Origin: a virus
Taxonomy: Duplodnaviria; Caudoviricetes
Strand: one strand, 5' to 3'
Virus record (IMG/VR): IMGVR_UViG_3300012231_000041
Span: 1 to 26,356 of that record
Length of the DNA: 26,356 nucleotides
The notes under the pieces were generated by a model. It was given only the letters and a program-made list of their open reading frames with translations. It had not been told where the DNA came from and made no database searches. The first letter of the stretch is position 1; each line of letters opens with the position of its first letter. Positions 4,428-26,321 of the stretch are shown piece by piece. The position numbers were made by a program, and so were the translations under genes.

Positions 4428-4443
4428 CTACTTCTCCAAGTAA
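4428..4443. promoter_or_regulatory. 16-bp palindromic site over the RBS of the 1251-aa gene
   Basis: CTACTTCTCCAAGTAA; the minus strand reads TTACTTGGAGAAGTAG-CA-ATG. Confidence 0.8.
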
Positions 4444-5466
4444 CTATGCTGTCGCAGTTTCAGGGATTGCGCCAGTCAGCATTTCTTGTTTCTTATTCCG
4501 AATACTCTCAATTTGCTTATACGCCCACTCTTGGCCCTTCCACTCGACCACATCTCGGGGCAATACAAACTCACCAGCTTCAGCCATAACCTTCACATCG
4601 TCCGGTATCGCTCCACGGCTAGGACTTGCTTCCTGCGGAATAGCGCCGCCTTCCTCTGCAAACAACCCTATACCAGCACCAACTACAGACCCAAGCGCCG
4701 ATCCCCACCCACCCGAAGCCTGAAGCTGTGAGTTATACGCGCTTACTTGGTTTGCATAAGACTGATTAAGCGCGTCAGCGCCTACATTAAGCGCAGTACT
4801 ACCAGCATTAAAATAACTCGCCGGCATACCCATAGCATTCGTGCCGGCATTAGTAGCACCGGCTGTAGTACTCCCGCCAGTGCCGCCAGCATTTGTTCCA
4901 GTCTGAAGCGCCGTTGTAGACTGCCCCGGATAGCCCTTACCAAGCTCTACAGCAGAGCCCAAAAGCCCAATACCCGTAGCTTCTGTTTGTTTTATAGCTT
5001 GCTGACCTGCAGCGGCGCTTGTTGCTGCTTCGGCTGTCATCATAGCCGGATCAAGGCTAGAATATTTGATATCAGCTACGTTAATGCCATAGTCCACAAG
5101 CTGTTGCTGAGCCGCTTTTTGTGTGGCTTCAAACTGCTGAGCAACGCCAGCCTGTGCAGCTTCAGCTTCTTGAAATGCCCGTTCGGGAGTCATATAGCTT
5201 TGCGCATAAGCTATATATTGATCTTCTAGCGGTTGGAAAACTTGCTCATAGCGCTCACGATCCGCAGCCGCTGTTTCGTTGGCGAACTCCTGAGACTCGA
5301 TTAGGCTAGGTATAATTTGATCATAATACTCCTTATCGGAGTAGTAAACCTCCTGCGCCCAAGCAAGCTGTTGCTGCGCAATGTCATAGGATAGCTGCGC
5401 TGCTTCCATAGAAGCATCGGCTATAGCTGTCATATCAGGAGGATCAGGGGGGTCAGGTTTGCTCAT
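4444..5466 (-). CDS. Ejection/DNA-transfer (pilot-like) protein
   Basis: 340 aa, Ala/Gln/Gly-rich helical protein with GGWGSALGSVVGAGIGLF segment; located just after the GNAT-like gene, as in podoviruses. Confidence 0.65.
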   Translation of the reverse strand: MSKPDPPDPPDMTAIADASMEAAQLSYDIAQQQLAWAQEVYYSDKEYYDQIIPSLIESQEFANETAAADRERYEQVFQPLEDQYIAYAQSYMTPERAFQEAEAAQAGVAQQFEATQKAAQQQLVDYGINVADIKYSSLDPAMMTAEAATSAAAGQQAIKQTEATGIGLLGSAVELGKGYPGQSTTALQTGTNAGGTGGSTTAGATNAGTNAMGMPASYFNAGSTALNVGADALNQSYANQVSAYNSQLQASGGWGSALGSVVGAGIGLFAEEGGAIPQEASPSRGAIPDDVKVMAEAGEFVLPRDVVEWKGQEWAYKQIESIRNKKQEMLTGAIPETATA

Positions 5467-5921
5467 GCTGCTTCCCGTCTAGCTTTTAAGTGATCCCAAA
5501 ACAAAAGTTTCCTAGGTTTCAGGTTCAACCATTTACAGTCTTCCTTGTGCATCGTGAGTATATGCAAGTCCCCATCTGGCACTGCATCAGGAATAGTTGC
5601 AACAATCTTAAACCCAATATGCGTGTCAAACTTAAGGGCTGGGAGATTATTAGACCCAACTCGTCCAATTATTACTTTACAACGTAGCTGTTTAAAAGGA
5701 TATGTAAACACCAGCCAGAGCAAGTTTCTGTTCATCCAATTAGGTCTGAAACTAGCCACATGCATACAAATACTAACACCACTATAGCTATCGTATACCA
5801 CTCCCCCGTAGAGCACTCCGTTTTCAGAACGTGAGATGACAGTCTCCCCATGTGGATTATACACCGCATGAGTTGCCTTAGCGATCTGATGTCCGTGCAT
5901 ATGGTTACCTAGTTCGATCAT
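5463..5921 (-). CDS. GNAT-fold virion-module protein (T7 gp13/P22 gp14-like position)
   Basis: 152 aa; VFTYPFKQL...NLPALKFDTHIGFKI resembles the GNAT C-terminal motif; 4-bp overlaps with both neighbours. Confidence 0.7.
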   Translation of the reverse strand: MIELGNHMHGHQIAKATHAVYNPHGETVISRSENGVLYGGVVYDSYSGVSICMHVASFRPNWMNRNLLWLVFTYPFKQLRCKVIIGRVGSNNLPALKFDTHIGFKIVATIPDAVPDGDLHILTMHKEDCKWLNLKPRKLLFWDHLKARREAA

Positions 5922-6121
5922 CTGCGTGGTATTTGATCCCTAGTTATAACCCCAACAGCTACAAGGTCTTCCCATGTTACTGCGCTATGACTAAACACCT
6001 TATGGCTGCGGTTTCCTACAAGTGTGTCCACGGTTGTCTTAAGCGCAGAAATAACCTCCTGATGTGACTCTACAGTCATTACCGGCTCTGCAATTGGCGG
6101 ATAGTCACCACGATGCGGCAT
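5918..6121 (-). CDS. Hypothetical protein
   Basis: 67 aa, overlaps both neighbours in an operon-like way. Confidence 0.7.
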   Translation of the reverse strand: MPHRGDYPPIAEPVMTVESHQEVISALKTTVDTLVGNRSHKVFSHSAVTWEDLVAVGVITRDQIPRR

Positions 6122-7923
6122 TACACTGTCCTAAGGTCTTTCGGGGAACTTCCAAAGTGTACCGAAGTAATATCTACCCGTGTTTGAATTTCGAATTTAA
6201 AGAAATCGTATTTTGTATCACTGGGTAACCTGAGTAATTCACCTGACGTTCGCACTTCATGTACAGCCAGTAACCTCTCATCTCCATACCATCTGATCAA
6301 AGCATACTGATCCTCAGACAAATCCGACTGAAGCTGAGAAGTATTTCTTATTGGATTTTGTGTTGGCGTATTTGGCACAAGATCGAAGTAAATCTTAGCT
6401 GCAGCAAAGTTGTCTTTGTATTGCGCTTGGAAGTCTTTGCTATGCCACACACAGGGCTCTGTAGTTTGGGTTGCGTCGGCTAGATCAAGCCAGTAAACCT
6501 TATTCCCCTTGAGTATAAGTAACTCACTACTCCAAGCATCATGTTGGACGTTATTAACCGGCTCATCGCTCTCTAGTAGCACTAAAGATATTCGCTGATT
6601 ACGCGGCTCGATGTAAACACCCTGTCCTACACCTAAAAAATCATCCTGCTGAAAAGAGTTACTTTGGAACGTATCATTTTGAAATACACCAGATTGCACC
6701 GTACCGAAGCCATAATAAGTGCTAGTGCCTAGTTTACCCGCGCGAAATCTACCTGATTTCACATATTGCTGCCATGTCTCTTTAGAAATAAACGCCTGTG
6801 AGATATTAGACGCTACACCAGATTGGAGTAAGATCAACCCGTTACCAGACGAGTAATACACCCCTTCCTGAAAAGTAACTATGCTCCCACGACTCGTACA
6901 GGGCTCAAACATAGACACGCGCGTGGGCATCATAGCAAGCGGATTTGCGCCCATTATAACTACAGGGTATCCTCTTGTCATTGCAAATATGGTCTGGCCT
7001 ATGCAGGCCAACCCTACAATAGGGTACTCCAGCGTGAGCACGGCAAGACTAGACCACGCATGGGGCCTAAACGGCTCACTAAACCAAACTTCACTCTCTC
7101 GCCATCCAGCGATTACACCGTTTGGCCCCATACAAAAGCCTTCCAAATCTGACGGAGGCGGGGTCCAAAACTCTGATTCGAGTATATGATTACCGGTTAT
7201 GTCTACAGAGTTAATGCTCGTATCAACGTAAGATGTTACGTTCACAAGTAGCTCTGTGATCTGAAAGAACGTTGCAACTCCCGTTGACCCGGTAATAGCA
7301 CGGTACAAACGTTTCTTAGTGATATTACGGTTCACCCCCATATCCCCTGAGGGAGGGATAGGAATATTAGTCAAAGTCCAAGTCGCATCGAGTTTACCAG
7401 TCCCACTAACTGGGGGGCTTGGCGCGCTCTCTTCTCCATATTCGGTAACGTAAGTAACAACATACGCCGTTGAAACAAGAGTGCTGGAAGAGCCAAGCGT
7501 AATAGTCAGCGTAGGGGCCGTAGCCGGAAGGGGTATCCCAAGTAGCCATGCCGGATTACCCGATATAATTCTGCTTTTTGTATTGTAACTAGGCGGACCA
7601 GAAGTAGACGCCCAATAGTACCTGTCGTGCACGTCTCCAAAGACTGATCCTCGAATAACATCTGTGTCAGGGTTCTCAAAGAACATATAGGTACTTTCAC
7701 CCATAACGTTATCTGAGTTCCCGTAGTCTTTAGGTATCCGATATACCTTTCCAACCATAGGCATACCGACAGCTTCCGTAAGAAACTTCGGCTTATAGAA
7801 CCCGTTTAGCACACCGCTATTTAGCCAAGCATTGACGGCATAGCTAGCTTGGGTGACAGGCAAATACCTGTCCTCCAAGGCTGGAGCCATGCCGCCAAAA
7901 AGTTCGACTTTAAGCGCAACCAC
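6121..7923 (-). CDS. Tail tubular protein B / nozzle (P22 gp10-like) protein
   Basis: 600 aa, beta-rich; YVVTYVTEYGEESAPS and VWFSEPFRPHAW motifs; size and position fit. Confidence 0.7.
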   Translation of the reverse strand: MVALKVELFGGMAPALEDRYLPVTQASYAVNAWLNSGVLNGFYKPKFLTEAVGMPMVGKVYRIPKDYGNSDNVMGESTYMFFENPDTDVIRGSVFGDVHDRYYWASTSGPPSYNTKSRIISGNPAWLLGIPLPATAPTLTITLGSSSTLVSTAYVVTYVTEYGEESAPSPPVSGTGKLDATWTLTNIPIPPSGDMGVNRNITKKRLYRAITGSTGVATFFQITELLVNVTSYVDTSINSVDITGNHILESEFWTPPPSDLEGFCMGPNGVIAGWRESEVWFSEPFRPHAWSSLAVLTLEYPIVGLACIGQTIFAMTRGYPVVIMGANPLAMMPTRVSMFEPCTSRGSIVTFQEGVYYSSGNGLILLQSGVASNISQAFISKETWQQYVKSGRFRAGKLGTSTYYGFGTVQSGVFQNDTFQSNSFQQDDFLGVGQGVYIEPRNQRISLVLLESDEPVNNVQHDAWSSELLILKGNKVYWLDLADATQTTEPCVWHSKDFQAQYKDNFAAAKIYFDLVPNTPTQNPIRNTSQLQSDLSEDQYALIRWYGDERLLAVHEVRTSGELLRLPSDTKYDFFKFEIQTRVDITSVHFGSSPKDLRTV

Positions 7924-8127
7924 TTACTTGCCTTCCACTGCCTTCTTCCCGGCTTCCATCTCTGCTTTTGTTTTAGCAGAAGGTTCAGGGGGAGGAGCTT
8001 CTACTACAGGAGGCTCGGGCGGCTGTTCCGGTGGCTTAGCGCCAGTGTAAACCTCGTCCGCTTTTGCCTTCGGGAACCCTTCCTTACTTTCGGAAGTAGC
8101 TTTCTTCTCGTCTTTGTGGTCAACCAT
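7924..8127 (-). CDS. Small Pro/Glu/Lys-rich hypothetical protein
   Basis: 67 aa, AGGAGG RBS, directly abuts the next gene. Confidence 0.65.
   Translation of the reverse strand: MVDHKDEKKATSESKEGFPKAKADEVYTGAKPPEQPPEPPVVEAPPPEPSAKTKAEMEAGKKAVEGK
8084..8099. promoter_or_regulatory. 16-bp palindromic site (intragenic)
   Basis: TTACTTTCGGAAGTAG, exact match to YTACTT-N4-AAGTAR. Confidence 0.7.
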
Positions 8128-8138
8128 CGTAGTTCCTC

Positions 8139-8822: not shown

Positions 8823-9658
8823 GGATAAACTCCATGGTGCACGATGAAGCTAAGCAACATCGTAGGTTGGATATTAAGATGCGGCTGGTCAACAGTGCCA
8901 GACATGCTTAGAGCATGCGTATGCGTGCCGGTTCCAGACTCAGAAGTTAGACCAACATTTGCTGGAGTTGTAGCGCCATCCAACTGATATGGGTTTGAGC
9001 CTGCAGTATTCTGGGTAACTACAGTCTCAGTGCTGCTAACAGACGGGCTTGTATCGTTTTGGTCGCCGTCGATAGCAACCCAGTGCTTATGTGGAGTAGC
9101 AGTTGGAGCCAGCGTATGGGTATGTGTAGGCACCTCAGTAGCAAGCAAAATATGCCGCTCAGTACCGGCTGCTCTGCCAATCTCTGTAGGACCAGTTGGG
9201 AACGTAGCAACTGTAAGACGATTAGCAGCAGTGCCGCCCATATTGTCTTTACCCGCAGGCACGCGCCCGCGCATATCGGGTATATTAAACGTTGTTGTGC
9301 CGTCGCCAACACCAAATTTATCGCCAGTTATGGCAAACAATGCGCTGTAAGTTGCCCGTGAGACTGAGCGTCCATCGCAAATAAACCAGCCTACAGGCTC
9401 AGAGTTTCCAGCTAGAGGCAACACTACTCCTACAGGAAACGCTTTTGTAGTGTTTACTAGCTCCCCACCAATAAATTCTAGTCCAGCACCAACAGGAACT
9501 TCCTCAACTGGACCCGCGCCAGAAGCTACTTTACCAATTAACGTTGGCCCAGTTGCCTCAAACTCGTGCACTCTGTTCCAATCAGAGGGCTTTACTAGGC
9601 TCGTATCAGAGCCGTCGCCCTTCGTAGATTGAAAAATATGTTTTATTTCGACAGTCAT
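8819..9658 (-). CDS. Tail fibre protein with phage tail collar domain
   Basis: PVGVVLPLAG..PVGWFICDGRSVSRATYSALFAITG...TFNIPDMRGRVP collar motif; HTH metal-binding repeats; PHLNIQP C-terminus. Confidence 0.88.
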   Translation of the reverse strand: MTVEIKHIFQSTKGDGSDTSLVKPSDWNRVHEFEATGPTLIGKVASGAGPVEEVPVGAGLEFIGGELVNTTKAFPVGVVLPLAGNSEPVGWFICDGRSVSRATYSALFAITGDKFGVGDGTTTFNIPDMRGRVPAGKDNMGGTAANRLTVATFPTGPTEIGRAAGTERHILLATEVPTHTHTLAPTATPHKHWVAIDGDQNDTSPSVSSTETVVTQNTAGSNPYQLDGATTPANVGLTSESGTGTHTHALSMSGTVDQPHLNIQPTMLLSFIVHHGVYP

Positions 9659-11007: not shown

Positions 11008-11043
11008 AGGCGTAGCTACTTTCGAAAGTAGCTACGCCTTTTT
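11008..11043. promoter_or_regulatory. Perfect 32-bp palindrome containing the 16-bp site; terminator-like on the plus strand
   Basis: AGGCGTAGCTACTTTC/GAAAGTAGCTACGCCT (11008-11039) followed by a T run; core at 11016-11031; directly after the capsid stop codon. Confidence 0.85.
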
Positions 11044-12106: not shown

Positions 12107-13105
12107 TTACGTGATGCGGCCGTCTCTCTGAGCCTCGAAAATCATGTTTTCAAGGCGTACCTTCTCTGCTTCATTGCCTGAGTAGCCACCCGAAGCAACT
12201 TGCGCATAGAACGCTGAGATTTGACCGCGTGTGATAACGGGCTTCTCAGCAGGGCTTTGCGCTGCTGTCCGGGCTCTGCCGGGCGCGGCGAATTTCTCTA
12301 GGGGAACCTTAGGCGGTTGGGAATTATTCCCATTGCCATTAGCTGCGCTAGAGTTTCGCGGGGCTACGACAGCCTCATCGGCTAGGAAACCATTGAAAAA
12401 CGCAAGCACACGCTGGGAGTCGTTCCGCTCGTATGCTTGTGTCAGCAAATCATGGCGCTTGGCACCGGAGTATGAATCCGGTTGAGCCAACCAGCCAAGA
12501 AATTCCTCATTATGGTTTAGTTCACGCCAAGTCTTGAGATTAGTGTCTAAGTAATTCTCAAGTTTACCCTTAGCGTCTTGTACAACATGCTGTCCAACAT
12601 GCTGAAGCTGAGTTTTAAGTTGTTGATTTTCCTGCTCTAGCTTCTGCAGATGAGGCATAAGCGCTTGCTTAGCCTTCTTCTCGACGATGTTTAAGAACTC
12701 CTCCCCGTAGTCACTCACCTCTTGGGGAGTAATAAGCTGGTCTAGAGTTGGGTCATTCTTGGGATCGCGAGGTTGATTGCTACTTTGTGAAGCAACTTTA
12801 GCAAGGGTTTGCTCTAAATTACCTAGTCTACCCGCCAGATTTCTATTCTCGCTAGACAACGTATCATATCGGCCCTTCATAGCCTTGTACCTACGCTCCC
12901 AGCCCTCATCCTGAGACTCTAGAGGAGTTTCGGGTGTAGGTTCAGGAGCAGGTTCAGGAGCAGGAGCAGTAGTACCACTCTCGGGTACTTGGGTAGGGTA
13001 CGCAGCTTGATACGCTTGATCGGCAGCGGCAGAAGCAGCTTTGACACCATCAGGAATAGTGACTCCGGGGTCTATCCCACCTTCTGGAGTAGCCTGATCA
13101 GCCAT
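12107..13105 (-). CDS. Capsid scaffolding protein
   Basis: Probable start ATG 13105; acidic/Pro N-terminus, WERRYKAMKGRY plus coiled coil, C-terminal AQRDGRI; directly upstream of the capsid gene. Confidence 0.75.
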   Translation of the reverse strand: MADQATPEGGIDPGVTIPDGVKAASAAADQAYQAAYPTQVPESGTTAPAPEPAPEPTPETPLESQDEGWERRYKAMKGRYDTLSSENRNLAGRLGNLEQTLAKVASQSSNQPRDPKNDPTLDQLITPQEVSDYGEEFLNIVEKKAKQALMPHLQKLEQENQQLKTQLQHVGQHVVQDAKGKLENYLDTNLKTWRELNHNEEFLGWLAQPDSYSGAKRHDLLTQAYERNDSQRVLAFFNGFLADEAVVAPRNSSAANGNGNNSQPPKVPLEKFAAPGRARTAAQSPAEKPVITRGQISAFYAQVASGGYSGNEAEKVRLENMIFEAQRDGRIT

Positions 13106-13600: not shown

Positions 13601-13644
13601 ATTTGTTACTTTCGACAGTAGCAAATAGGTCATATACTTGTCAA
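13601..13644 (-). promoter_or_regulatory. Sigma70-like promoter whose -10 lies inside a palindromic site
   Basis: Minus strand TTGACA (13639-13644), 18-bp spacer, TACTGT (13615-13620); site TTACTTTCGACAGTAG at 13606-13621 with arms extended to 13601-13626. Confidence 0.7.
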
Positions 13645-13872: not shown

Positions 13873-16130
13873 TACCCTACTCCCCCTTGAATTTTAGGTG
13901 CGGGTCTTTGCTGCTGAAGGTTTAACCTTGGACCTACGTCACCAGTGCCTGCTGGCTTCTGTTGTCCACCCTGCGCCCTAGCTGCTGCAGACGGAATAGC
14001 TCCTGATCTGGCAGCAGTTTGGGCTGCACCGGGCACGCCAGCTTTAACTTGCCCTTCTTGTCCCGGTGGAGGCGGTGGCGGGGCTTGTTCTTGAGCCTGC
14101 TGCATTTTATTGATCTGGTCTTCATTAGGCACGATTTCCTCGCCGTCTAGCCCAATGGTTTTACTAACACTCCTTAGAACGGCAGCACGACCCTTAGCTC
14201 CCATAATCTGAGCGTCCATGGGGTTAGCGGTGGCTGTGAGGAACTCAATCTGGCGTGCTCTTTGGGTTTCACGCTGGATAGCGACGTTGACGCCCATAAC
14301 CTTAATAGTCTCGTCGCCATGTAGAAGCCCAGTCGTGTCGGTCAGCATAAGTAAGTCGTACACATCAGTCAGCGCCGGGCTCATAACATCACGGTCGATG
14401 TTAGCAGCTACGGTTTGAAGTATCTTAGAGGCGTTGGACATGAGCATAGACAGGCCAGAAGAAGTCCTGCCTGCACCGCCCGGAGCCCCTTGGCCTGCAA
14501 GAAACCTAGGTATCGCACTTAGGTCGTCGGCCAGATTAGAGAAAAACTGATAGACCTGAAGAAGGTCTTGTGCGTTACTTTGAGGGTTAAAGAAAGTAAT
14601 AGGCGCAACAGCAGCGTTAGTCCCAAAAGGATCACTGACTGTGTACCAGCGTTTCCAAGGATATAAATCTTCTACATCTGCACCGGGCGCTATCCTATCC
14701 CTGTTTATTACTACTTGCGGACCCGAAGCGATAGAGAGATTATTGACCAAGGCACGAAGTGTTGCATTCGCTACGTCCTGCACGTCTGCAAGAATATCCG
14801 GTAGTCCGTTCCCTACAGGGGTGCCAGGGATTTTTTCGAAGGAACTAATATAGTATGGATGACGCCGCCTTGGGGATGGGGATAGCTGCACCTTGATAAC
14901 ATAGGTGCCGATAATCCATGCCTGAACCATGTAATCGCGAAGGGGATCAGGGATGTCTTCTTCGGTGAAGCCATATCCAGGCTCAAGTAACATTCGTCCT
15001 TGTACGTTACCGTGGAACTCCAAACAGTTAATAATCCCTGATTGGTTGAAGAGCGGGCTTTCACGGGATTCATTTAGTGCTCGCTCAGAGTCAGTGCTGT
15101 CCCAGTTGTCAGTGATCCCCCCACGACCGTAATCATCCAGCACGGAGCGCACTGCGTCGTTGTTAAATCCCGGCAAATCCAAAAGATCATTAAGCTCACC
15201 ACGTGTTAGTCTGGTACGCTCAACAACTGCAGCATCGCCAATATCAGATACACCCGGCGTCCAATACAAATCAAAGGGGCTGACCCTACCCCATGTCATT
15301 CTTGGGACTTGCATGACTCCGGGGGCTGGGTCTGTAGGGTTAGGAGGGGGTGGTGCAGAAGGTGGCTCTGGTAGTTGATTGTTGAATACGCCCCTTGTGT
15401 TGCTCTGGTCCCATCGAACAGTGGGAACAATTCTAACTGTTGGTCCTTTGATGCAGGCATAAGGAAACTGCGGAAGGTCGACGATGAACTCAGCGAGCGC
15501 ATTGTAAAAACCTCCCTCATCGAATATCTCCTCGATTTTGTCCTGAACTAAACTTGCGCGTTTGTTTGCCTGCTTCTTAGCTGCCGACCTCGCAGCGTCC
15601 ATAAGCTGGACGGTTCTGTCCCTTATCATGCCCGGATCAGGTGCAGCTTGCGGCGCTACTTGCATCAGAGTTTGGATTTCAGTTTGAACCAGTTGGGTTA
15701 TCGTCTGGACGATTTTTTGGGGTACATCCGGGTCAGCCGGGGGCTTTATGCCCCATGGACGATCAGGGGAAAGATACACGTCCCTGAGGAGCGAAGTTGC
15801 TCCTCTGCACTTCATGGCTATCATTCTAGCGTAGACTTCAGACCCCCCAAATCGGCGGATTTCACTTAGCTTCTGAGTAGAGTATTTACCATTAAAAGTA
15901 CGTTGGGCGTCTAGAAGCCTCTCACTCCAGCCTGCAGCCGAGCCACGATGTTCGCGAAAAATATCATATTGTCGTTTGATATAACCAGCTAGACCAGTCT
16001 GATCTATGTCTTGCTTCTGATTGTTACGTTTGAAAGTAGCATCTGCTTCGTTTTGAAGATTACGCTCATGATCACCGGGAGAGACCACACGTAAGACGGG
16101 AGCGAGTGCAAAGTTTTGTTCAAGAGGCAT
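13872..16130 (-). CDS. Portal protein
   Basis: 752 aa; RVSPFDLYW, SFEKIPGTPVGNGLPDIL, RALVNNLSIASGPQV, GRTSSGLSML motifs of P22/T7-type portals; Gln/Pro-rich tail. Confidence 0.88.
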   Translation of the reverse strand: MPLEQNFALAPVLRVVSPGDHERNLQNEADATFKRNNQKQDIDQTGLAGYIKRQYDIFREHRGSAAGWSERLLDAQRTFNGKYSTQKLSEIRRFGGSEVYARMIAMKCRGATSLLRDVYLSPDRPWGIKPPADPDVPQKIVQTITQLVQTEIQTLMQVAPQAAPDPGMIRDRTVQLMDAARSAAKKQANKRASLVQDKIEEIFDEGGFYNALAEFIVDLPQFPYACIKGPTVRIVPTVRWDQSNTRGVFNNQLPEPPSAPPPPNPTDPAPGVMQVPRMTWGRVSPFDLYWTPGVSDIGDAAVVERTRLTRGELNDLLDLPGFNNDAVRSVLDDYGRGGITDNWDSTDSERALNESRESPLFNQSGIINCLEFHGNVQGRMLLEPGYGFTEEDIPDPLRDYMVQAWIIGTYVIKVQLSPSPRRRHPYYISSFEKIPGTPVGNGLPDILADVQDVANATLRALVNNLSIASGPQVVINRDRIAPGADVEDLYPWKRWYTVSDPFGTNAAVAPITFFNPQSNAQDLLQVYQFFSNLADDLSAIPRFLAGQGAPGGAGRTSSGLSMLMSNASKILQTVAANIDRDVMSPALTDVYDLLMLTDTTGLLHGDETIKVMGVNVAIQRETQRARQIEFLTATANPMDAQIMGAKGRAAVLRSVSKTIGLDGEEIVPNEDQINKMQQAQEQAPPPPPPGQEGQVKAGVPGAAQTAARSGAIPSAAARAQGGQQKPAGTGDVGPRLNLQQQRPAPKIQGGVG

Positions 16131-16193: not shown

Positions 16194-16673
16194 ATGGAAA
16201 ACGAGTTTAATATCTACGAAGACGATGCTGTGTATATGCGCCTAGCTCGTGAAATAGCATTGGATCATTACGAGCTACCGGATATCCTAAAGCGCCATAA
16301 CATATCACATGAGCGCTGGAGCAAAATATCCAACGATAAGTATTTCACCAGTATTTTAAGCTCTGAGATATCACATTGGAACACAACTGCAAACACAACA
16401 GAGCGGTCCAAACTAAAAGCCGCAGCCCTGATAGAAGACTGGCTCCCAGAAGCCCACAACCAGTTACATAATTCAAGGGAAAACTTAAGTTCGAAAGTAG
16501 CTTTAGCCACCTTGGTAACCAAAATAGCCGGCATGGGCCTAGAAAAGGCTACCCTCAACGATAACACTAGTGACAAATTTGTAGTAAATATTAATCTTGG
16601 AGCCGATAAGAACATTAATCTGCAAAAAGAAATTAACATCACCCCACGTCTAGCCATAGTGCAGGAGGACTAA
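16194..16673 (+). CDS. terS: Terminase small subunit (putative)
   Basis: 159 aa; HTH-like N-terminus, helical core, beta-strand C-terminus (FVVNINLG); stop directly abuts the terL ATG. Confidence 0.7.
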   Translation: MENEFNIYEDDAVYMRLAREIALDHYELPDILKRHNISHERWSKISNDKYFTSILSSEISHWNTTANTTERSKLKAAALIEDWLPEAHNQLHNSRENLSSKVALATLVTKIAGMGLEKATLNDNTSDKFVVNINLGADKNINLQKEINITPRLAIVQED

Positions 16674-18125
16674 ATGAAGACTATCAATTACGAGCCTCCC
16701 CCAACTTGCAAAGATTTTATGCTGTCTGAGTCTTTTGGCAGGCTTATCGCTGGCCCAGTGGGTAGCGGTAAGACTACTGCTGCTATTCTGGAGCTATTCA
16801 GGCGCGCGTGCGAGCAAGAGCCTGCACCAGACGGAATAAGACACACAAGGTTTGCCATTGTTAGAACCACGCTCAAACAGCTAAAAGACACGATCCTGAA
16901 AGATGTCTTACAGTGGTTCGAAGGTATAGCCGAGTATAAAGTTAGTGATAGTACAATCAGGTTCAGGGTGGGGGACATAGACTCTGAGTGGCTTTTGATC
17001 CCACTTGAGACTCCTGAGGATCAGCGTAGACTCTTGTCGATGCAGATTACAGGGGCTTTTATCTCGGAGGCTATCGAATTTGATCTTGATCTTGTTTCGC
17101 CACTTGCCGGCCGTTGTGGCAGATATCCATCGGCCACTATGGGGGGTGCAACTTGGATGGGAATTATTGCTGATACTAATATGCCTTCTGAAGGCTCTCC
17201 ATGGCACGGCTTCATGACTAAGCCCCCGATTGACTGGCAGGTGTTTATCCAGCCGGGCGGCATGACAGACCACGCCGAGAACTTAGAATGGCTCACGCAA
17301 ACTCCAGCATCGCTTAAACTCCCGCTCACTGATCCTGCAAGAAAGGCACAAGGCAGAACCTACTATGAGCGATTCATACGTAGTAACAGTGACACTTGGT
17401 GTCGTAGGTATGTGCACGCTCTATATGGCGATGACCCTAGTGGTATGGCTGTATTCAGGGAAAGTTTTAAATCTGAGTATCATGTGGTGGATAATCTGGA
17501 GCCTGTCGCTGGCACTGCTCTTATCATAGGACAGGATTTCGGGAGAGACCCTTGGTCGGTAATTACACAAATGGATAGTTTAGGAAGGTTTTTAGTCTTG
17601 GAGGAAATACCTGCAGAAGACATAGGGTTGTTTCAACATTTGGTGACTAGCCTACGTCCAAGGTTGCAACAGGTTAGATATCTCGGGAAGCCCGTAGCTA
17701 TCGTAGGTGACCCATCAGGTGTGGCGAAGAGTAGTATTTATGAGGAAACGTCGTTTGATGTCATCAAGCGAGTAGGCTTTCACTGTTTCCCTGCACCAAC
17801 AAACGATCTTGATCCTAGAATCAGGAGCATAGAATCATTGCTACTTCAGCAAGTAAGGGGCAAAAGCCTCTTTGTGATTGACCGGGCTAAATGCCCTACA
17901 TTGGTGCAAGCCCTAAACGGAGGGTACAGGTTTGCTTATAATAGAGATGGCCAGAAAAAACCCACTCCAGAGAAAAACGATTATTCTCATGGCATGGATG
18001 CACTGCAGTACGCAGCTTTGGCTGTGTCTGGAGGGATGGTGAGTGGGTACATCCGCAATAAAGTCTCTGGGGAGCGCTGGGGTGGTGAAAGCAGAGGTAG
18101 GGTAGTAACTGCAGGTTGGACGTGA
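16674..18125 (+). CDS. terL: Terminase large subunit
   Basis: Walker A GPVGSGKT, Walker B-like GAFISE, ADTN coupling motif, nuclease GQDFG, GDPSG and SHGMDALQY. Confidence 0.93.
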   Translation: MKTINYEPPPTCKDFMLSESFGRLIAGPVGSGKTTAAILELFRRACEQEPAPDGIRHTRFAIVRTTLKQLKDTILKDVLQWFEGIAEYKVSDSTIRFRVGDIDSEWLLIPLETPEDQRRLLSMQITGAFISEAIEFDLDLVSPLAGRCGRYPSATMGGATWMGIIADTNMPSEGSPWHGFMTKPPIDWQVFIQPGGMTDHAENLEWLTQTPASLKLPLTDPARKAQGRTYYERFIRSNSDTWCRRYVHALYGDDPSGMAVFRESFKSEYHVVDNLEPVAGTALIIGQDFGRDPWSVITQMDSLGRFLVLEEIPAEDIGLFQHLVTSLRPRLQQVRYLGKPVAIVGDPSGVAKSSIYEETSFDVIKRVGFHCFPAPTNDLDPRIRSIESLLLQQVRGKSLFVIDRAKCPTLVQALNGGYRFAYNRDGQKKPTPEKNDYSHGMDALQYAALAVSGGMVSGYIRNKVSGERWGGESRGRVVTAGWT

Positions 18126-18181
18126 ACAAAAGGGTCAGGGGGGGCATTAATAGAACAAACCGTGTTTGTTCTCATATGCTA

Positions 18182-18212
18182 AGGTGCTCGGATACTCAGG
18201 TGCTCGGATACT
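18182..18212 (+). repeat. 15-bp tandem direct repeat
   Basis: AGGTGCTCGGATACT at 18182-18196 and 18198-18212; CTAGGGGG also occurs three times (18211, 18292, 18300). Confidence 0.9.
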
Positions 18213-18310
18213 AGGGGGCTGGTGGTAGCCACCGGAGCCCTGACAGGACGCAGCGAGTCGATCCAGCAGCTACCGGGAAAGTGTTTAGGTGCTAGGGGGC
18301 TAGGGGGTCA

Positions 18311-18342
18311 AGTAACTTCTGAGTTACTATTTTTTATTTTTT
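18311..18342 (+). terminator. Putative intrinsic terminator after terL
   Basis: AGTAACT-TCTG-AGTTACT followed by ATTTTTTATTTTTT; the stem is AT-rich and weak. Confidence 0.5.
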
Positions 18343-18440
18343 CTAATCTATGATTCTAGGACACCTAATCCGCCCGGCCCCCACCCCCACCCCTTGGCCA
18401 ATACCACCGGGGGTAGCCCCTTAGGCACCTTGTGGTTGCA

Positions 18441-18462
18441 TTCCTACTTCGCGAAGTAGGAA
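18441..18462. promoter_or_regulatory. Palindromic site (perfect 22 bp)
   Basis: TTCCTACTTCGCGAAGTAGGAA; core 18444-18459. Confidence 0.85.
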
Positions 18463-18637: not shown

Positions 18638-18662
18638 CGTTGCTACTTTGAAAGTAGCAACG
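18638..18662. promoter_or_regulatory. Palindromic site, 1-bp-short variant, upstream of the first early gene
   Basis: CGTTGCTACTTT-G-AAAGTAGCAACG. Confidence 0.75.
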
Positions 18663-18681: not shown

Positions 18682-19485
18682 ATGGTAGAATTGAAAAACA
18701 CTCGCACTCTTGCCGACATGCTCGACCTTGCGGAACAGCGCGGCGCGCAAAAGGGCGAGGGCGATAGCGCCCTTGCGCTTCTCGCGATGGATGTTGCGAT
18801 CGGAGTTCGCGAGAACTCTTTCGTTGATATCGTCATGAAGAAGGGCAAGGAAAACGACATTCACTCAATGTGGAAGCGTTACGCCAAGGGTCAGAACGCG
18901 AAAGCCCCGGCTGAACGTTCGGCCAAGAGCATTTCATCCCATGTGTCGCGCTTGCAGGGTATCGCTGACGCGGCGTCTAAGATGGACAATTTCGCTGGCG
19001 ATGTCATGGTGAAGGTTCTCGACGCTCGGGAAGCCATTGTCAATGACAAGGCGAGCAAGGTCAAAACTTGGCCCTTGTATGACTGCTACGTGAACGCCGC
19101 TCGCCTTCAGTGCAAGGCCGAGAACGCGGGTATTCTCAGCGATGAACTCATCGTCGAGGCCGTCGTGAAGGTCGCGAAAGTGAAGACGCTCGTGGAGCAC
19201 CTTGAGGCAATCCAGAAGAGCATCGAAGCTCTCAAAGACCCTGACAGCAATTATCAGGTGGACACGTTCTATCACTATGTGGTCGAGCGTGCCGCTGATG
19301 ATATCTCCAAGCTGGTCACTGCCGCGAAGCGTGCGGAGATGACGGAGCAGGAACGCGCTGAGCACGACGCGATGATCGCGGCCCGTGACAATGTGCGCTT
19401 TGAGTTCGCACAAGCTGAGAAGCGCGCAACGGAGCGCGCTTTGCAGACTAGGGACGATATCGCGGCGGAGAAGCTTGCCGCCTAG
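18682..19485 (+). CDS. Unknown helical early protein, paralogue of 23778..24680
   Basis: 267 aa, GC-rich third positions; shares many aligned motifs with the 300-aa protein. Confidence 0.85.
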   Translation: MVELKNTRTLADMLDLAEQRGAQKGEGDSALALLAMDVAIGVRENSFVDIVMKKGKENDIHSMWKRYAKGQNAKAPAERSAKSISSHVSRLQGIADAASKMDNFAGDVMVKVLDAREAIVNDKASKVKTWPLYDCYVNAARLQCKAENAGILSDELIVEAVVKVAKVKTLVEHLEAIQKSIEALKDPDSNYQVDTFYHYVVERAADDISKLVTAAKRAEMTEQERAEHDAMIAARDNVRFEFAQAEKRATERALQTRDDIAAEKLAA

Positions 19486-19500: not shown

Positions 19501-19528
19501 CCGTTGCTACTTTCGAAAGTAGCAACGG
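19501..19528. promoter_or_regulatory. Palindromic site (perfect 28 bp)
   Basis: CCGTTGCTACTTTCGAAAGTAGCAACGG; core 19507-19522. Confidence 0.88.
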
Positions 19529-19968: not shown

Positions 19969-19987
19969 TGTTACTTCGTAAGTAACA
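19969..19987. promoter_or_regulatory. Palindromic site, 1-bp-short variant
   Basis: TGTTACTT-CGT-AAGTAACA. Confidence 0.65.
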
Positions 19988-20254: not shown

Positions 20255-20307
20255 TTGACACACGCTATGCTTTATTATAAGATGCCTATCACTACTTACA
20301 AAGGTAA
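20255..20307 (+). promoter_or_regulatory. Sigma70-like promoter with a downstream degenerate palindromic site
   Basis: TTGACA (20255-20260)-17-TAAGAT (20278-20283); CTACTTACAAAGGTAA at 20292-20307. Confidence 0.75.
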
Positions 20308-20326: not shown

Positions 20327-20914
20327 ATGCATAGTCAAGTTAAGCTAGCTAGGCAACGAGCCCTAGGCTCCCCACTTCCCAGTGTTGAAATAATCTGCCC
20401 TTACTGTAAAAACACTGAAATCCGCGCCGCTGGCAACCACCAGCGTAGCTACTTAGGCGCGAAGACATTTTACTTTCGCCGGTATTCGTGTGTGAACTGC
20501 GAGGGAACAATCTGGATAGCTATAGACAGAGACACTAACGATACTCTGTATCCATCCATTTCCCCTATCAGCCAAAGCTTCTTCGAAGTGGTAATGCTTT
20601 TCACACATGAGCAAGTGTTAAACAACGAGTTTAAATACTCGCCCCGACAGCGCGGTGCAGCGTATAGCAGCGTTATACGATGCAAGGCTGATTTGCTAGC
20701 TTATAGAAAGGAGATGCTTGGACACTGGCAGAATACAAATGGGTATCACGCTCCTGCAGGTGTTGTTGATATGTATCTTAGAACCTTCAATGCTTGGATG
20801 AAGGAGCTACCAGATACATATGAGCCAGTAAGATACACACCTTTGGTAGAAGACCCAGCAGCACTAGACGACGACGCTATAGATAGTAGGTTAGCCAACC
20901 TACTTCCCCGCTAG
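20327..20914 (+). CDS. Hypothetical Zn-ribbon protein
   Basis: Start reassigned to ATG 20327 (GAGAGGA RBS, downstream of the promoter); CPYC...CVNC. Confidence 0.7.
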   Translation: MHSQVKLARQRALGSPLPSVEIICPYCKNTEIRAAGNHQRSYLGAKTFYFRRYSCVNCEGTIWIAIDRDTNDTLYPSISPISQSFFEVVMLFTHEQVLNNEFKYSPRQRGAAYSSVIRCKADLLAYRKEMLGHWQNTNGYHAPAGVVDMYLRTFNAWMKELPDTYEPVRYTPLVEDPAALDDDAIDSRLANLLPR

Positions 20915-20925: not shown

Positions 20926-20968
20926 GTAACCGCCTAGCCCCCTAGGCGGTTACTACTTCGGAAAGTAG
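20926..20968. promoter_or_regulatory. 12-bp hairpin fused to a palindromic site
   Basis: GTAACCGCCTAG-CCCC-CTAGGCGGTTAC (20926-20953), then CTACTTCGGAAAGTAG (20953-20968). Confidence 0.8.
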
Positions 20969-20991: not shown

Positions 20992-21360
20992 ATGGACACG
21001 AACACGCTGAATGAATACGCTGACGAGTTGTTTATTGCCTTGCAGGCTGATCGCAAGATCAACGCTATCAAGGCTATTCGTGCTATGACTGGCGGAGGGC
21101 TATACGAGGGCAAGGCAGTCGTGGAAGCTATATTCAAGGCGTTTAACAGGCCGCAGGACTTCAACCCCTACGCAGCAGTTGAGGATAACTCTGAGTATAT
21201 GGTTACGGTGGCTGGAGAAAATTCCACGTGGACACACACGTTTGCTTCTGAGCAGGCCGCTATCGACTACGCTGACGGATACAGGAATGTTACCGTAGGC
21301 AAGGTCATAGCTAAGTCTGTGGCTAAGACTGTTGTAACATACACACTAGAGCGCGTCTAA
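20992..21360 (+). CDS. Protein with ribosomal protein bL12 (L7/L12) C-terminal-like domain
   Basis: RKINAIKAIRAMTGGGLYEGKAVVE resembles the bL12 K..VIK.VR..TGLGLKEAK.LVE motif; AAGGAG RBS. Confidence 0.7.
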   Translation: MDTNTLNEYADELFIALQADRKINAIKAIRAMTGGGLYEGKAVVEAIFKAFNRPQDFNPYAAVEDNSEYMVTVAGENSTWTHTFASEQAAIDYADGYRNVTVGKVIAKSVAKTVVTYTLERV

Positions 21361-21700: not shown

Positions 21701-21716
21701 CTACTTTCGCAAGTAG
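21701..21716. promoter_or_regulatory. 16-bp palindromic site just upstream of an RBS
   Basis: CTACTTTCGCAAGTAG. Confidence 0.8.
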
Positions 21717-22356: not shown

Positions 22357-22357
22357 C

Positions 22358-22432: not shown

Positions 22433-22616
22433 TGAGCGTCTGGCTGCAGACCTAGAGCTAGCCGAGGCGCGTAGGCGCGCACGACTAGAGTATATGCGCA
22501 AATATCGCGCACTCAATCGCGAGCGTATTAGAACATACAATCGCGAATACCAGAGGAGAAGGCGAAATGACAAGGAAAGACTTTGGGCTACTTGCGAAAG
22601 TAGTAAGGAACTTTGA
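22416..22616 (+). CDS. Arg-rich helical protein (start uncertain)
   Basis: ARRRARLEYMRKYRALNRERIRTYNREYQRRRR fills an otherwise empty gap; weak RBS; 3' end overlaps the next gene by 50 bp. Confidence 0.5.
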   Translation: MCLRIDERLAADLELAEARRRARLEYMRKYRALNRERIRTYNREYQRRRRNDKERLWATCESSKEL

Positions 22617-22979: not shown

Positions 22980-22981
22980 AA

Positions 22982-23209: not shown

Positions 23210-23220
23210 CACTGGCATTG

Positions 23221-23249
23221 CTACTTGCAGAAGTAACATTCTGCAAGTA
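23221..23249. promoter_or_regulatory. 16-bp site nested in an alternative 11-bp hairpin
   Basis: CTACTTGCAGAAGTAA (23221-23236); TACTTGCAGAA-GTAACA-TTCTGCAAGTA (23222-23249). Confidence 0.75.
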
Positions 23250-23281
23250 ACCGAGCTAGTGTAGCTCAGGGGAGAGCCAAC

Positions 23282-23632
23282 ATGGAATTCCTTGGAAGAG
23301 TAGCCGATCACTTCGTATTCACACGCAACAATGATATTATCACATGGAGCAAAGAAGACAAACTACAGAAGATAGAAACAAATCTCGATCATCTCGATGA
23401 TGCCCAACTATTCAGCGATGGCATCCTTGTCGTCGGCGATGGGGACGAGATAGCACATATTGATGTAAATGGTGGGTATCATTTACTGTATGATGACTAT
23501 CTCACCGATACACCAATTAGCATAATCATCCCGTATGATGACCCAGATTATCCATCTAGGGAAGGAGTAGCAGTGGTGTTAGCTGTGAATGAAACGGTAA
23601 TTGTAAATTGGGACTGGTCTATAGACGCATAG
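23282..23632 (+). CDS. Acidic beta-rich hypothetical protein
   Basis: 116 aa, GGGGAG RBS. Confidence 0.7.
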   Translation: MEFLGRVADHFVFTRNNDIITWSKEDKLQKIETNLDHLDDAQLFSDGILVVGDGDEIAHIDVNGGYHLLYDDYLTDTPISIIIPYDDPDYPSREGVAVVLAVNETVIVNWDWSIDA

Positions 23633-23701
23633 CGCACTCATCTGGCGCAGGCATCCAACCATAGGAGGCGCAAAAAACATCAAACACAACCTAGAAAGTC
23701 C

Positions 23702-23775
23702 TTGACGTAGCCCCTTAGGCACGTAATATCTTAAACAAGCCTGCTGATCCTGCAGGTAACTACTTGGAGAAGTAG
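23702..23775 (+). promoter_or_regulatory. Sigma70-like promoter plus palindromic site over the RBS
   Basis: TTGACG (23702-23707)-16-TAATAT (23724-23729); CTACTTGGAGAAGTAG (23760-23775), 2 bp before the ATG. Confidence 0.75.
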
Positions 23776-23777
23776 CA

Positions 23778-24680
23778 ATGAGTGGATTTGAAATTGCCGA
23801 AACTACCCCTGACGCTACGGCTGAGGAGGACATCTCTAAGCCGCTCCCCAACGAGGGACCGCATTCTACGTTTGTCAGGCAAGTCAAAAAGCTTGGTCGG
23901 GATGCAGCCCTAGGACGGGACTCGCTTCCGGCACTGGTGGCAGCGATTGCTGAGGCAGTCGAGACTAACGCGCTTGACCCTGCACCGCCAAAGGATGGCA
24001 GATACCAAGTAAACGGCAAGCCTGTCTCGCCTGCAGTTTATGTGTTTGACATCTACATGAAAGAGGATGGTCGCAAGGCTGTCCATGATCGTAGTAAAAA
24101 ATCCAACACTGCACAGGCAAGCAAGATCAAGCAAATCATTGACGCTTGCGCCAAGCCTAACGTCAACTTCCGTGAAGCTCTTGTTAGGGCTGCAGACGCT
24201 CGGAAGGGACTCTTCCAGCAGGAAGCCAAGCTTAAGCCCGCGTTTGATAGCTATCTTGATATGGCTCGGGCGCAAATTAAGAAAGACTCCTCGCTTACGG
24301 ACGAGGAGGTTGAGTTCTTCCAGCACAAGAAGGATGTTACTCGCGAGAGCAACATCTCCAAGGAACTGGAAAAAGCATGGCGGGTGCTTGAGAAGCTCCT
24401 TACGGGAGAGGGCAAGTCTGGGGTGATCCTCCCGACTGCAGACCCAAGGTATGATGGTGTGCAGTCGGCGTATGATAACCTCTTGGAAGCCATCCGGTCG
24501 GAGAAGCCGGACTTCAACGTGCCTAAGGCACCTGAGGCGGTTGAGGGTGAAGAGGAGGAGTCTGAGGAAGTCGAGGGTGAGGAGGAGGAGGTCGAGCTTG
24601 ATGGGATGGGTAATCCCGTTGACGGTGGGCCGCCTGTTGAAGAGCCGGCAGTCCAGCCGCAGGTTCAGGCTGCAGAATAA
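23778..24680 (+). CDS. Unknown helical protein with acidic C-terminal tail, paralogue of 18682..19485
   Basis: 300 aa; Lys/Arg-rich core; tail EAVEGEEEESEEVEGEEEEVELD. Confidence 0.85.
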   Translation: MSGFEIAETTPDATAEEDISKPLPNEGPHSTFVRQVKKLGRDAALGRDSLPALVAAIAEAVETNALDPAPPKDGRYQVNGKPVSPAVYVFDIYMKEDGRKAVHDRSKKSNTAQASKIKQIIDACAKPNVNFREALVRAADARKGLFQQEAKLKPAFDSYLDMARAQIKKDSSLTDEEVEFFQHKKDVTRESNISKELEKAWRVLEKLLTGEGKSGVILPTADPRYDGVQSAYDNLLEAIRSEKPDFNVPKAPEAVEGEEEESEEVEGEEEEVELDGMGNPVDGGPPVEEPAVQPQVQAAE

Positions 24681-24685
24681 CAAAA

Positions 24686-24701
24686 CTACTTTCGAAAGTA
24701 G
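24686..24701. promoter_or_regulatory. 16-bp palindromic site (perfect consensus)
   Basis: CTACTTTCGAAAGTAG between the stop codon and the terminator. Confidence 0.85.
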
Positions 24702-24702
24702 C

Positions 24703-24730
24703 AAGGGCTGGGATTTTCCCAGCCCTTTTT
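24703..24730 (+). terminator. Intrinsic terminator
   Basis: AAGGGCTGGGA-TTT-TCCCAGCCCTT followed by a T run. Confidence 0.85.
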
Positions 24731-24752
24731 CTATCCACCCATAGGAGAGGCT

Positions 24753-24830
24753 ATGACTGAGGAGCAGATTAGGGCTCTGCGCGAGCATATCCGCAGAATT
24801 CTAGAGCGTCTTAGGCGCTTAGGCGCTTAG
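24753..24830 (+). CDS. 25-aa amphipathic basic peptide
   Basis: AGGAGAGG RBS; MTEEQIRALREHIRRILERLRRLGA. Confidence 0.5.
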   Translation: MTEEQIRALREHIRRILERLRRLGA

Positions 24831-24874
24831 CTACAAAGTTCATTAGGACTATAGTCCTATCACGGAAATGTTAC

Positions 24875-24903
24875 TTTACAAGGGGGTCACCTTGTGGTAA
24901 CCT
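24875..24903 (+). promoter_or_regulatory. Sigma70-like promoter
   Basis: TTTACA-17-TAACCT with extended TG; AAGGAGG RBS follows. Confidence 0.65.
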
Positions 24904-24925
24904 ATAGATACACAAGGAGGAATGT

Positions 24926-25144
24926 ATGGCTTTTGCCCTTTGCCCAGACCTACCGGGCAAGCCTAGACTGATCCGCTTCGTTGCTACTTTGGGAAGTAGC
25001 ATCGTCGCAATGTTGAACAAAGAACAGAATTTACTACTGGTAGACAAGGAGAAGTATGATAGACTTTCACCTGCAGAGCAAGAAGCGTTAATAAAAACGC
25101 ATGAAAGTATAGTTTCATCAACCCACCCAACTTTTACGGAGTAG
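24926..25144 (+). CDS. Hypothetical protein
   Basis: 72 aa, AAGGAGG RBS. Confidence 0.7.
   Translation: MAFALCPDLPGKPRLIRFVATLGSSIVAMLNKEQNLLLVDKEKYDRLSPAEQEALIKTHESIVSSTHPTFTE
24984..24999. promoter_or_regulatory. 16-bp palindromic site (intragenic)
   Basis: CGTTG-CTACTTTGGGAAGTAG-CATCG. Confidence 0.75.
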
Positions 25145-25150
25145 ACTGAA

Positions 25151-26233
25151 ATGACCCTCGATGAAGTATTGTCTCGTATTCCCATGTGGTATGCTGGTAA
25201 GCGGAGCGTGCTGCTTCGCTCGCCGCCCGGCACGGGGAAATCAACAACCCTGGCTGCAGCCGCAGGATTGCTATCCTCGGTGTTCAACGCAGCCTATGGG
25301 TTCGTTATCGTTGACGCCACGTTGCTTACTCCTGCGGATGCTATCGGGTATCTCGTGCCTAAGCATATGCCGGATGGCACAACGGAGAGCGTGTATACGC
25401 TGCCCTTTTATTGGCGCACTGCCGAAGGTAAACTCCTATCCGAGTATGCCGGTGGCATCATCGTTGTCGAGGAGATCGACAAGGCCGACATCGACATCAA
25501 GAAAATCCTTGGCGAGGCGTGTCTGTCTGGGCGCATCGGGCCGCATCAGTTGCCTAAGGGCTGGCTTGTGTGGATGGCGGGTAACCGCCAACAGGATCGC
25601 TCAGGGTCCACCAAGGAGCTTGACCATCATATCAATAGGCGTATGGAGATTCCTGTAGACCCGCACTTTGGTTCGTTCGAGAACTACGCTAACAAGGTCA
25701 ACGCTATGCCGTTGACGATTAGCTTCGCAAAGAAGCACCAAGACTTGGTGTTTGCTAGCGAGGTTCCTAAGGTTCAGGGGCCTTGGTGCACGCCTAGGTC
25801 ATTGCTTGGTGGCGTGGATACGTATATTCAGAGTGTGATGAAGTATACCAAGAGCAAGACGCTTCCCGATGATTCCCTTCTTATGGAAGAAGTTAAGGGC
25901 ATGATCGGCAGTACGGCGATGGACCAGTATTTTATCCATGCCAAGCTGCAGTATGAAGTGCCGGGCATTGAGGAGATTACCAAAGACCCGGCAGGGGCGA
26001 GGCTCCCCAATGATGCTGCTGTGCAGACGTTGATTGCGTATAACCTCTCTAGGGAGGTTACACCAGAGAACGCTGGTGCAGTCATAACTTACGTGGAGCG
26101 TATGGCGAAGGAGTTCGCAGTTACCTTTGCCAATGCTACGATGAAGCGCAAGCCTACGTTGGTGCTGATCCCGGTGTTTAGGAAGTGGATTGAGGGGAAC
26201 AGCGCACTCATCTTCCTCATCAACTCCAACTAA
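25151..26233 (+). CDS. MoxR-like AAA+ ATPase
   Basis: Walker A SPPGTGKS, Walker B IIVVEE, sensor AGNR, TPRS motif. Confidence 0.85.
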   Translation: MTLDEVLSRIPMWYAGKRSVLLRSPPGTGKSTTLAAAAGLLSSVFNAAYGFVIVDATLLTPADAIGYLVPKHMPDGTTESVYTLPFYWRTAEGKLLSEYAGGIIVVEEIDKADIDIKKILGEACLSGRIGPHQLPKGWLVWMAGNRQQDRSGSTKELDHHINRRMEIPVDPHFGSFENYANKVNAMPLTISFAKKHQDLVFASEVPKVQGPWCTPRSLLGGVDTYIQSVMKYTKSKTLPDDSLLMEEVKGMIGSTAMDQYFIHAKLQYEVPGIEEITKDPAGARLPNDAAVQTLIAYNLSREVTPENAGAVITYVERMAKEFAVTFANATMKRKPTLVLIPVFRKWIEGNSALIFLINSN

Positions 26234-26234
26234 C

Positions 26235-26321
26235 TGCCCTAGCCTCTTAGCCCCTTCGGTGCTAGGGCATAGGGGGTGTTGGCCTTGCAGAACCAACACC
26301 CCCGCCTACTTTCGAAAGTAA
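26235..26321. promoter_or_regulatory. Two hairpins followed by a 16-bp palindromic site
   Basis: TGCCCTAGC/GCTAGGGCA (26235-26269); GGGGGTGTTGG/CCAACACCCCC (26272-26303); CTACTTTCGAAAGTAA (26306-26321). Confidence 0.75.

Follow-up and report, generated by a model that had tools for sequence, protein, structure and literature searches.

Dispersed palindromes in a family of podoviruses and a candidate phage protein for their recognition

Introduction

The repressor c of phage phiC31 binds its dispersed inverted repeats, as established in the 1990s, and the stoperators of Cluster A mycobacteriophages are dispersed sites proposed to silence the genome by blocking elongation. In the phiC31 record (AJ006589), gene c opens the early region and is annotated as a repressor of lytic genes, and 15 dispersed 16-bp palindromes (TACTCACGTGAGTA) can be counted, 13 of them fitting CTAC-N8-GTAG; the Salmonella phage epsilon15 (Uetakevirus, AY150271) has seven annotated repressor sites and 12 matches to YTACY-N5-RGTAR. 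Cluster A stoperators are described as asymmetric and oriented with transcription (PMC4351075). In Cluster O mycobacteriophages, which have no integrase, 34 dyad-symmetric 17-mers (TGTTCGG-N3-CCGAACA) with invariant arms and unknown function have been reported, many of them in coding regions and mostly off promoters, and the sections devoted to these arrays present them as a puzzle without naming a binder (PMC4351075). Here, we describe a network of 16-bp palindromes, YTACTT-N4-AAGTAR, in the IMG/VR virus record IMGVR_UViG_3300012231_000041, whose full 26,356 nucleotides are called the window hereafter, and a protein encoded twice in it, C11, as the candidate binder of these palindromes. The first-pass annotation of this DNA did not recognise the motif, but its kind is known, since phiC31, epsilon15 and the Cluster O mycobacteriophages have dispersed palindromes of this kind.

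The window spans an entire virus record of 26 kb with a completeness of 43%, and is a fragment of a ~60 kb podovirus whose closest isolates are four ~60.9 kb Rhizobium phages including RHph_TM3_14A (capsid 69%, terminase 56%). Further relatives are found in Bradyrhizobium isolates and one Pseudolabrys assembly, being integrated in two cases, where they adjoin a serine or a tyrosine integrase. No publication on the palindrome network was found in the literature reached, outside of which stand the description of the Rhizobium phages and the primary papers on phiC31 and SPC32H, which may mention the motif.

Results

The palindrome network in the window and in its relatives

An exact YTACTT-N4-AAGTAR occurs 14 times in the window and never in 100 dinucleotide shuffles (mean 0.00, largest 0); when one mismatch is tolerated, the count rises to 21, where the shuffles average 0.34 and reach 2 at most. 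Two copies of 15 bp lie at 18643 and 19971, no 17-bp copy is present in the window at up to one mismatch, and the matches with two mismatches, that at 16485 among them, number seven. All 13 exact copies, six one-mismatch copies, two short copies and the two-mismatch copy listed by the first-pass annotation are thus present, and an exact copy at 17841 and a one-mismatch copy at 9526 are to be added.

Most relatives have the network as well, dozens of them carrying one 15-16-bp palindrome per 1-2 kb, usually TTACY-N5/6-RGTAA with lineage-specific variants; RHph_TM3_14A, for instance, has 35 16-bp and 15 15-bp copies of YTACY-N6/5-RGTAR. Among the 12 relatives that are at least 90% complete, nine hold 12-55 copies of the 16-bp pattern and three hold 0-1, and these three have variants of their own (TTACAG, TTGACA and TMACTC). 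The half-site is TTACC, TTACTC, CTACTT, TTACAG, TTGACA, TTGATC or TGTTCC according to lineage, further full variants being TTGATC-N4-GATCAA and, in two relatives, TGTTCC-N2-GGAACA, and the ratio of 15-bp to 16-bp sites varies from genome to genome. Such variation of the half-site among phage lineages is as expected for a phage-encoded binder. Regarding the variant of the window itself, an exact 18-mer searched in viral contigs gave 0 matches, and a form specifying 14 bases gave one site per locus in the best 80 of 117 loci; with a single site at each locus listed, the search thus brought up no close relative that shares the CTACTT variant.

Other words were observed at the margins of the family. 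In G011 (L146-L149), the word is TTGACA-N3-TGTCAA, i.e., two inverted sigma70 -35 boxes, in 27 copies. The more distant phage contig G055:C67 (L504-L506), which has another gene order, carries its own CTTAC-N2-GTAAG network of 12-20 copies without detectable C11. A distant capsid relative, the 17 kb contig L197 of a metagenome-assembled genome, has six ACTA-N3-TAGT palindromes against 0.0 expected; this word is the same as that of a trace in G054, and these palindromes perhaps form a separate small network.

Placement, spacing and turnover of the sites

Gene positions were taken from a simple caller of our own, which gives 89 genes on the RHph record, near its annotation. Out of 663 sites in 17 genomes, 410 (62%) lie in coding sequences (CDS) and 234 are intergenic, which is ~3.5x the non-coding share. 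Intragenic counts are far above a synonymous-codon null in 8/8 genomes tested (10 vs 0.23 in the window, 31 vs 0.79 in G002), and intragenic sites are under selection. Their positions are mostly private: in the primase-helicase gene, 33 sites occupy 29 positions. The first-pass annotation had proposed the conservation of intragenic copies in relatives as a check on function; positions are indeed not kept, and because counts far exceed the synonymous null, this fast turnover does not refute function.

Spacing is more even than random in 10/16 genomes (coefficient of variation (CV) 0.52 vs 0.94 in the window), and among 711 pooled gaps both the short ones (55 vs 157 expected) and the long ones (16 vs 35) are depleted. 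Site density is 1.36/kb in early, 0.88/kb in replication and 0.49/kb in structural genes; the capsid gene is free of sites over 22 kb, where 10.9 would be expected, and a site stands after it in 17/22 genomes.

Probable double-stranded sites confined to the phage

In 426 sense-oriented 16-mers, which come from related genomes and are hence less than independent, Watson-Crick pairing between the arms at four variable positions falls short of what within-genome permutation predicts (z -2.9 to -4.2). There is no G-U bias either, as G-U mispairs (180) are as frequent as A-C mispairs (181). Pairing looked high when pooled over genomes because of the genome-specific consensus, an artefact. Within a palindrome, a weak half-site tends to be paired with a good one, which would fit an additive threshold for protein binding. 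The outer pair, read in the mRNA sense, is C-A in nine and T-G in four of the 24 window sites, and the C-A mismatches reported earlier at 8084, 13606, 23221 and 26306 are correct. Four intergenic window copies have arms 5-8 bp longer (summed extension 39 vs 26, p 0.009); family-wide, over 221 intergenic and 404 intragenic sites, no arm extension was found.

The strict word TTACYY-N4-RRGTAA was also sought in host genomes: in three of them, 9/9, 18/18 and 16/17 matches fall on the phage part, and a fourth genome has one match. The 98.5 kb of host flank are free of sites, compared with 80 sites over 182.5 kb of prophage, a tandem prophage being counted twice. From these comparisons, the palindromes are very likely double-stranded DNA (dsDNA) protein sites. 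The preference of the first-pass annotation for a dsDNA site over an RNA stem is thus supported by the lack of arm covariation and of G-U bias, and its view of a phage-wide system rather than a host regulator box by the near-absence of matches on the chromosomes of the hosts of three relatives.

C11, a candidate binder

C11 is the first early gene and has two copies in the window (E 2e-7 between copies), copy 1 (267 amino acids (aa), 18682-19485, + strand) and copy 2 (300 aa, 23778-24680, + strand), each with a site on either side. The family comprises 1,055 clusters at 50% identity, and among isolate phages no homologs were found beyond the four Rhizobium phages. The model of copy 2 is all-helical and confident (pLDDT 89), residues 1-249 forming nine helices that are followed by an acidic tail. 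Residues S115, K116, K/R118, R164 and Q166 are invariant or near-invariant, and the KxQVSKLR helix (residues 107-124 of copy 2) together with R164/Q166 are plausible, putative DNA contacts.

Among 76 families (at most 450 aa, present in at least 4 genomes), C11 is the only one found in 25/25 network-positive and 0/5 network-negative genomes, sets which were chosen after the counts had been seen and which left out G014, G043, G055 and shorter fragments; the next-best families without presence in the negatives reach only 18/25 positives. When C11 status was read first and palindromes were counted after, the network was found in 11/11 C11-positive genomes. As for the six C11-negative contigs, G033 (complete), G042, G056 and G043 (which lacks the C11 region) are without network, in G054 an 11-bp word recurs six times, and G055, with its other gene order, has a clear 12-bp network. 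G020 spans the expected C11 region and has neither the gene nor the network. The co-occurrence amounts to about two independent events, and the independent evidence is therefore modest. A site lies within 150 bp on both sides of 8/21 C11 genes, vs 80/1109 non-core genes. Another residue stands in place of S115 in four genomes with non-standard half-sites (G008, G012, G039 and G040), whereas G011, G038 and the window keep it, and K116 is variable among genomes with standard sites too; covariation between residues and motif, as seen in these alignments, is suggestive only. On these grounds, C11 is predicted to be, and probably is, the binder of the palindromes.

Several comparisons gave no further lead. 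Foldseek against BFVD matches C11 only to two uncharacterised or unnamed proteins, and PDB sequences give coiled-coil noise only; a known fold may have escaped the Foldseek comparisons with the PDB and BFVD. The leads from the ESM Atlas (DUF3102, 0.87 and 0.82; phiC31-type repressor, 0.81) are language-model resemblances and weak, the phiC31-type lead being confirmed by neither family nor profile comparison. A homodimer prediction gave no answer (score 0.40 vs a mark of 0.42) and is not used as evidence. Other candidate binders were rejected: 5 complete genomes with the network do not encode an OmpR-like winged helix, no homolog of the epsilon15 repressor was found (best E 0.095 over the six-frame open reading frames (ORFs) of 31 sequences), a conserved ~240-aa gene before the DNA polymerase has no Pfam family and is present in only 18/25 positives, and an excisionase-like HTH_17 protein is patchy in its presence.

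Concerning individual members, the two window copies sit on some of the longest branches of the C11 family tree, and that genome has the unusual CTACTT half-site. In G004, the C11 gene is split into two ORFs. G020, which has neither C11 nor the network, encodes at L173:15225-17235 and L174:8339-8650 two adjacent proteins that look ParB-like by eye, one with a weak Pfam helix-turn-helix match, and a ribbon-helix-helix-like ORF; these could possibly be replacement regulators.

Sites and other features of the window

The virion genes of the window are on the minus strand, the terminase genes are inverted and the early region extends up to the AAA ATPase. By our gene calls, 13 of the 24 window sites are intergenic and 11 in CDS, the one at 20292 being more likely in a 5' untranslated region if the gene starts at 20327.

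In the virion region, the exact site at 4428-4443 fills the gap between two genes, over a ribosome-binding site (RBS; GGAG in the spacer) and 2 nt before the start of a 1251-aa gene. One-mismatch sites lie within the GNAT gene (5672-5687), a 600-aa virion gene (7236-7251), the tail-fibre gene (9526-9541) and a scaffold-like gene (12780-12795), and near the 5' end of the portal gene (16024-16039); an exact site is within a 67-aa gene (8084-8099). The exact site at 11016-11031, 13 nt past the major capsid stop, forms the centre of a hairpin of 14 bp (11008-11039, + strand) that carries a T run. Since this T run is on the + strand, antisense to the capsid gene, the terminator-like hairpin would stop convergent transcription and not the capsid mRNA. 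An intergenic one-mismatch site (13606-13621) covers the likely -10 element of a TTGACA promoter on the minus strand that was read by eye and was not listed by the promoter scan. The two-mismatch site in terS (16485-16500) is uncertain; terS of 9 relatives has a site at one position common to these nine. The added exact site at 17841-17856 is within terL.

Between terL and the early region, the non-coding stretch 18130-18430 has a strongly skewed strand composition, rich first in G and then in C, together with short direct repeats, and is a possible genome end, packaging site or origin. An exact intergenic site (18444-18459) follows upstream of the first early gene, and a 15-bp site (18643-18657) stands 24 nt before the start of C11 copy 1, with an exact site (19507-19522) 21 nt past that gene. 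Another 15-bp intergenic match (19971-19985) precedes the one-mismatch site at 20292-20307, which is just downstream of a sigma70-like promoter (TTGACA-17-TAAGAT, 20255-20283). Exact intergenic sites lie 23 nt (20953-20968) and 18 nt (21701-21716) ahead of a start, and at 23221-23236; the exact site at 22588-22603 is within a 66-aa early ORF. An early gene at 20992-21360 encodes a ribosomal L7/L12 C-terminal-like domain, and a Bradyrhizobium relative has one too. C11 copy 2 is preceded by an exact site (23760-23775) over its RBS, 2 nt before the start and downstream of a promoter-like site (23702-23729), and is followed after 5 nt by another (24686-24701), which abuts a terminator-like hairpin (24703-24727). 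The last exact sites are within a conserved 72-aa gene ahead of the AAA ATPase (24984-24999) and past the AAA ATPase gene (26306-26321).

Two observations concern the relatives. EVB41_076 of RHph_TM3_14A (L026:11839-14922) is annotated as a putative integrase, and its Pfam match is DUF927, without integrase domain; the att sites annotated in the same record may be spurious. The Pseudolabrys assembly (G031:C4 12201-137300) holds two prophages in tandem, with an exact repeat of 61.9 kb, either a double lysogen or an assembly artefact.

Discussion

We tentatively read the palindromes as sites bound by C11, a predicted genome-wide repressor. C11 dimers would bind the palindromes, likely through the KxQVSKLR helix, limit C11 synthesis via the flanking sites, cover some promoters and ribosome sites (4428, 13606, 20292 and 23760) and act inside genes as a roadblock to transcription, densest in early and replication genes; a prophage or carrier state would so be kept silent without a CI-type repressor, or early genes be shut down during lytic growth. 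Given that C11 is the binder, repression is rather likely to be its main job, being favoured because prophages are without detected CI-type repressor, because of the early-heavy density gradient and because of the phiC31 parallel. Indeed, no CI-type domain was found among 142 scanned of 228 listed prophage proteins, and HTH_3 is present in only 2/12 complete relatives.

Several points weigh against this reading, some of them against C11 as the binder and others against repression. The 124 C11 members examined have no consistent Pfam or PHROG family, Foldseek against the PDB returns nothing for C11 at E up to 0.001, its fold is not a known one for DNA binding, and most C11 cores are net acidic. 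The AAA ATPase gene is also often flanked by sites on both sides (6/17), the capsid-plus-portal tree reduces the pattern to absence in outgroups plus one internal loss (G020, G033), and G055, which stood outside the 76-family test, has its CTTAC-N2-GTAAG network without C11. Few independent events thus tie C11 to the network, and another phage protein, too short or divergent to cluster, might bind the palindromes with C11 merely in the same early module, all the more as the family test covered only proteins of at most 450 aa in at least 4 genomes and the window is without over half of its genome; we hold this to be improbable, the OmpR-like winged helix, the epsilon15 repressor homolog and the next-best families having all failed as candidates. 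Regarding repression, most complete members are without integrase (tyrosine type in 0/12 and 3/10, serine type in 0/22), the integrase-less genomes have the densest networks, strong sigma70-like promoters are not significantly enriched for sites family-wide (5/21 vs a null of 0.17), and the rarity of sites in the capsid gene may come from protein constraint. From private positions, excess counts, even spacing, the density gradient and the lack of promoter enrichment, selection apparently acts on coverage more than on exact position, and sites that are evenly spaced and turn over fast are more what one would expect of a coverage function than of classical operators. C11 could hence bind the palindromes and coat, organise or shield the phage chromosome rather than repress it, by nucleation every 1-2 kb for compaction, by self-marking against nucleases or by helping DNA to be pulled in during entry. 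The depletion of both short and long gaps, the many sites in CDS, those of the primase-helicase gene included, and the dense networks of integrase-less genomes speak for it, and the authors of the Cluster O study, in the part dealing with their arrays, inferred similarly (PMC4351075). We nevertheless consider it rather unlikely: a uniform coat does not predict an early density nearly 3x the structural one and none in the capsid gene, integrated prophages need a repressor and no CI-type candidate was seen, and the phiC31 palindromes are also fairly even (CV 0.73), so that evenness does not exclude repression. Slightly less likely is a bolder form, in which C11 would be a new class of sequence-specific DNA-binding protein tiling the phage chromosome at 1-2 kb as a nucleoid or shield, sites re-evolving inside genes to hold coverage and protein and palindrome changing together between lineages.

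The same observations bear on readings that dispense with a phage-encoded binder. A host regulator or nucleoid factor recruited by the palindromes could explain that the TTAC...GTAA core is retained over a wide clade; this is very improbable given the near-absence of matches on three host chromosomes (those of relatives' hosts, that of the window phage not being among them), the half-sites that differ between phage lineages and the loss of the network along with a phage gene. Still more remote is a role of the palindromes as RNA or single-stranded DNA hairpins, i.e., processing sites, terminators or hairpin promoters, for which the longer arms of four intergenic window copies, the terminator-like hairpin around 11016 and a spacer varying by one base could be invoked; with arm pairing below expectation, no G-U bias and no family-wide arm extension, hairpin formation could at best be an additional role of a few copies. 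The first-pass proposal of a silencing or DNA-organising system holds as far as phage-specific dsDNA-type sites selected inside genes are concerned, and the sites may serve either of these two jobs.

For palindrome arrays in mostly integrase-less phages, the window family offers a specific candidate protein. If C11 binds, it would represent an unannotated DNA-binding family, acting either as a CI-independent master repressor or as a phage genome organiser, and variant pairs of protein and site might be put to use as orthogonal regulators. The material at hand comprises natural losses and site variants, four Rhizobium phage isolates and Bradyrhizobium strains carrying the phage.

Comparison with known systems

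Among known systems, parS, matS and regulon boxes sit on the host chromosome, unlike the palindromes of the window family, which are nearly absent from the hosts of three relatives. Cluster A stoperators share with these palindromes their dispersion; they are asymmetric, whereas the window sites are palindromic. The likeness to phiC31 is closer, since its dispersed 16-bp palindromes have the half-site and geometry of the window (CTACT-N6-AGTAG) and gene c heads the early region in co-direction, as would C11 if it is the binder. However, phiC31 sites have an invariant CACGTG core and are intergenic in 14/15 cases, in contrast to the free core and mostly intragenic placement in the window family. 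Moreover, PF25746, the family of phiC31 c, was found in 0/18 genomes, including 15 complete relatives, and profile-profile comparison of C11 with c gives 19.1 vs 19.0 for a reversed control, i.e., no homology. In epsilon15, the word TTACC-N5-GGTAA coincides with that of the 15-bp class in many window relatives, whereas the window has YTACTT half-sites and is dominated by the 16-bp class. Epsilon15 sites are all intergenic (12/12) and clustered (CV 1.51), unlike the mostly intragenic sites of the window family, which are not promoter-enriched, and its gp38-type helix-turn-helix repressor has no homolog in the family (best E 0.095). As in Cluster O, dozens of dyad copies are found genome-wide in the window family, many intragenic and mostly off promoters; the Cluster O word is another one, with invariant arms, which TGTTCC-N2-GGAACA of two window relatives resembles. 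The palindrome system would thus work like the phiC31, epsilon15 and Cluster O arrays, yet on the features tested it is a member of none of them, being set apart by an intragenic, evenly spaced and fast-turnover layout and by a single unannotated candidate binder.

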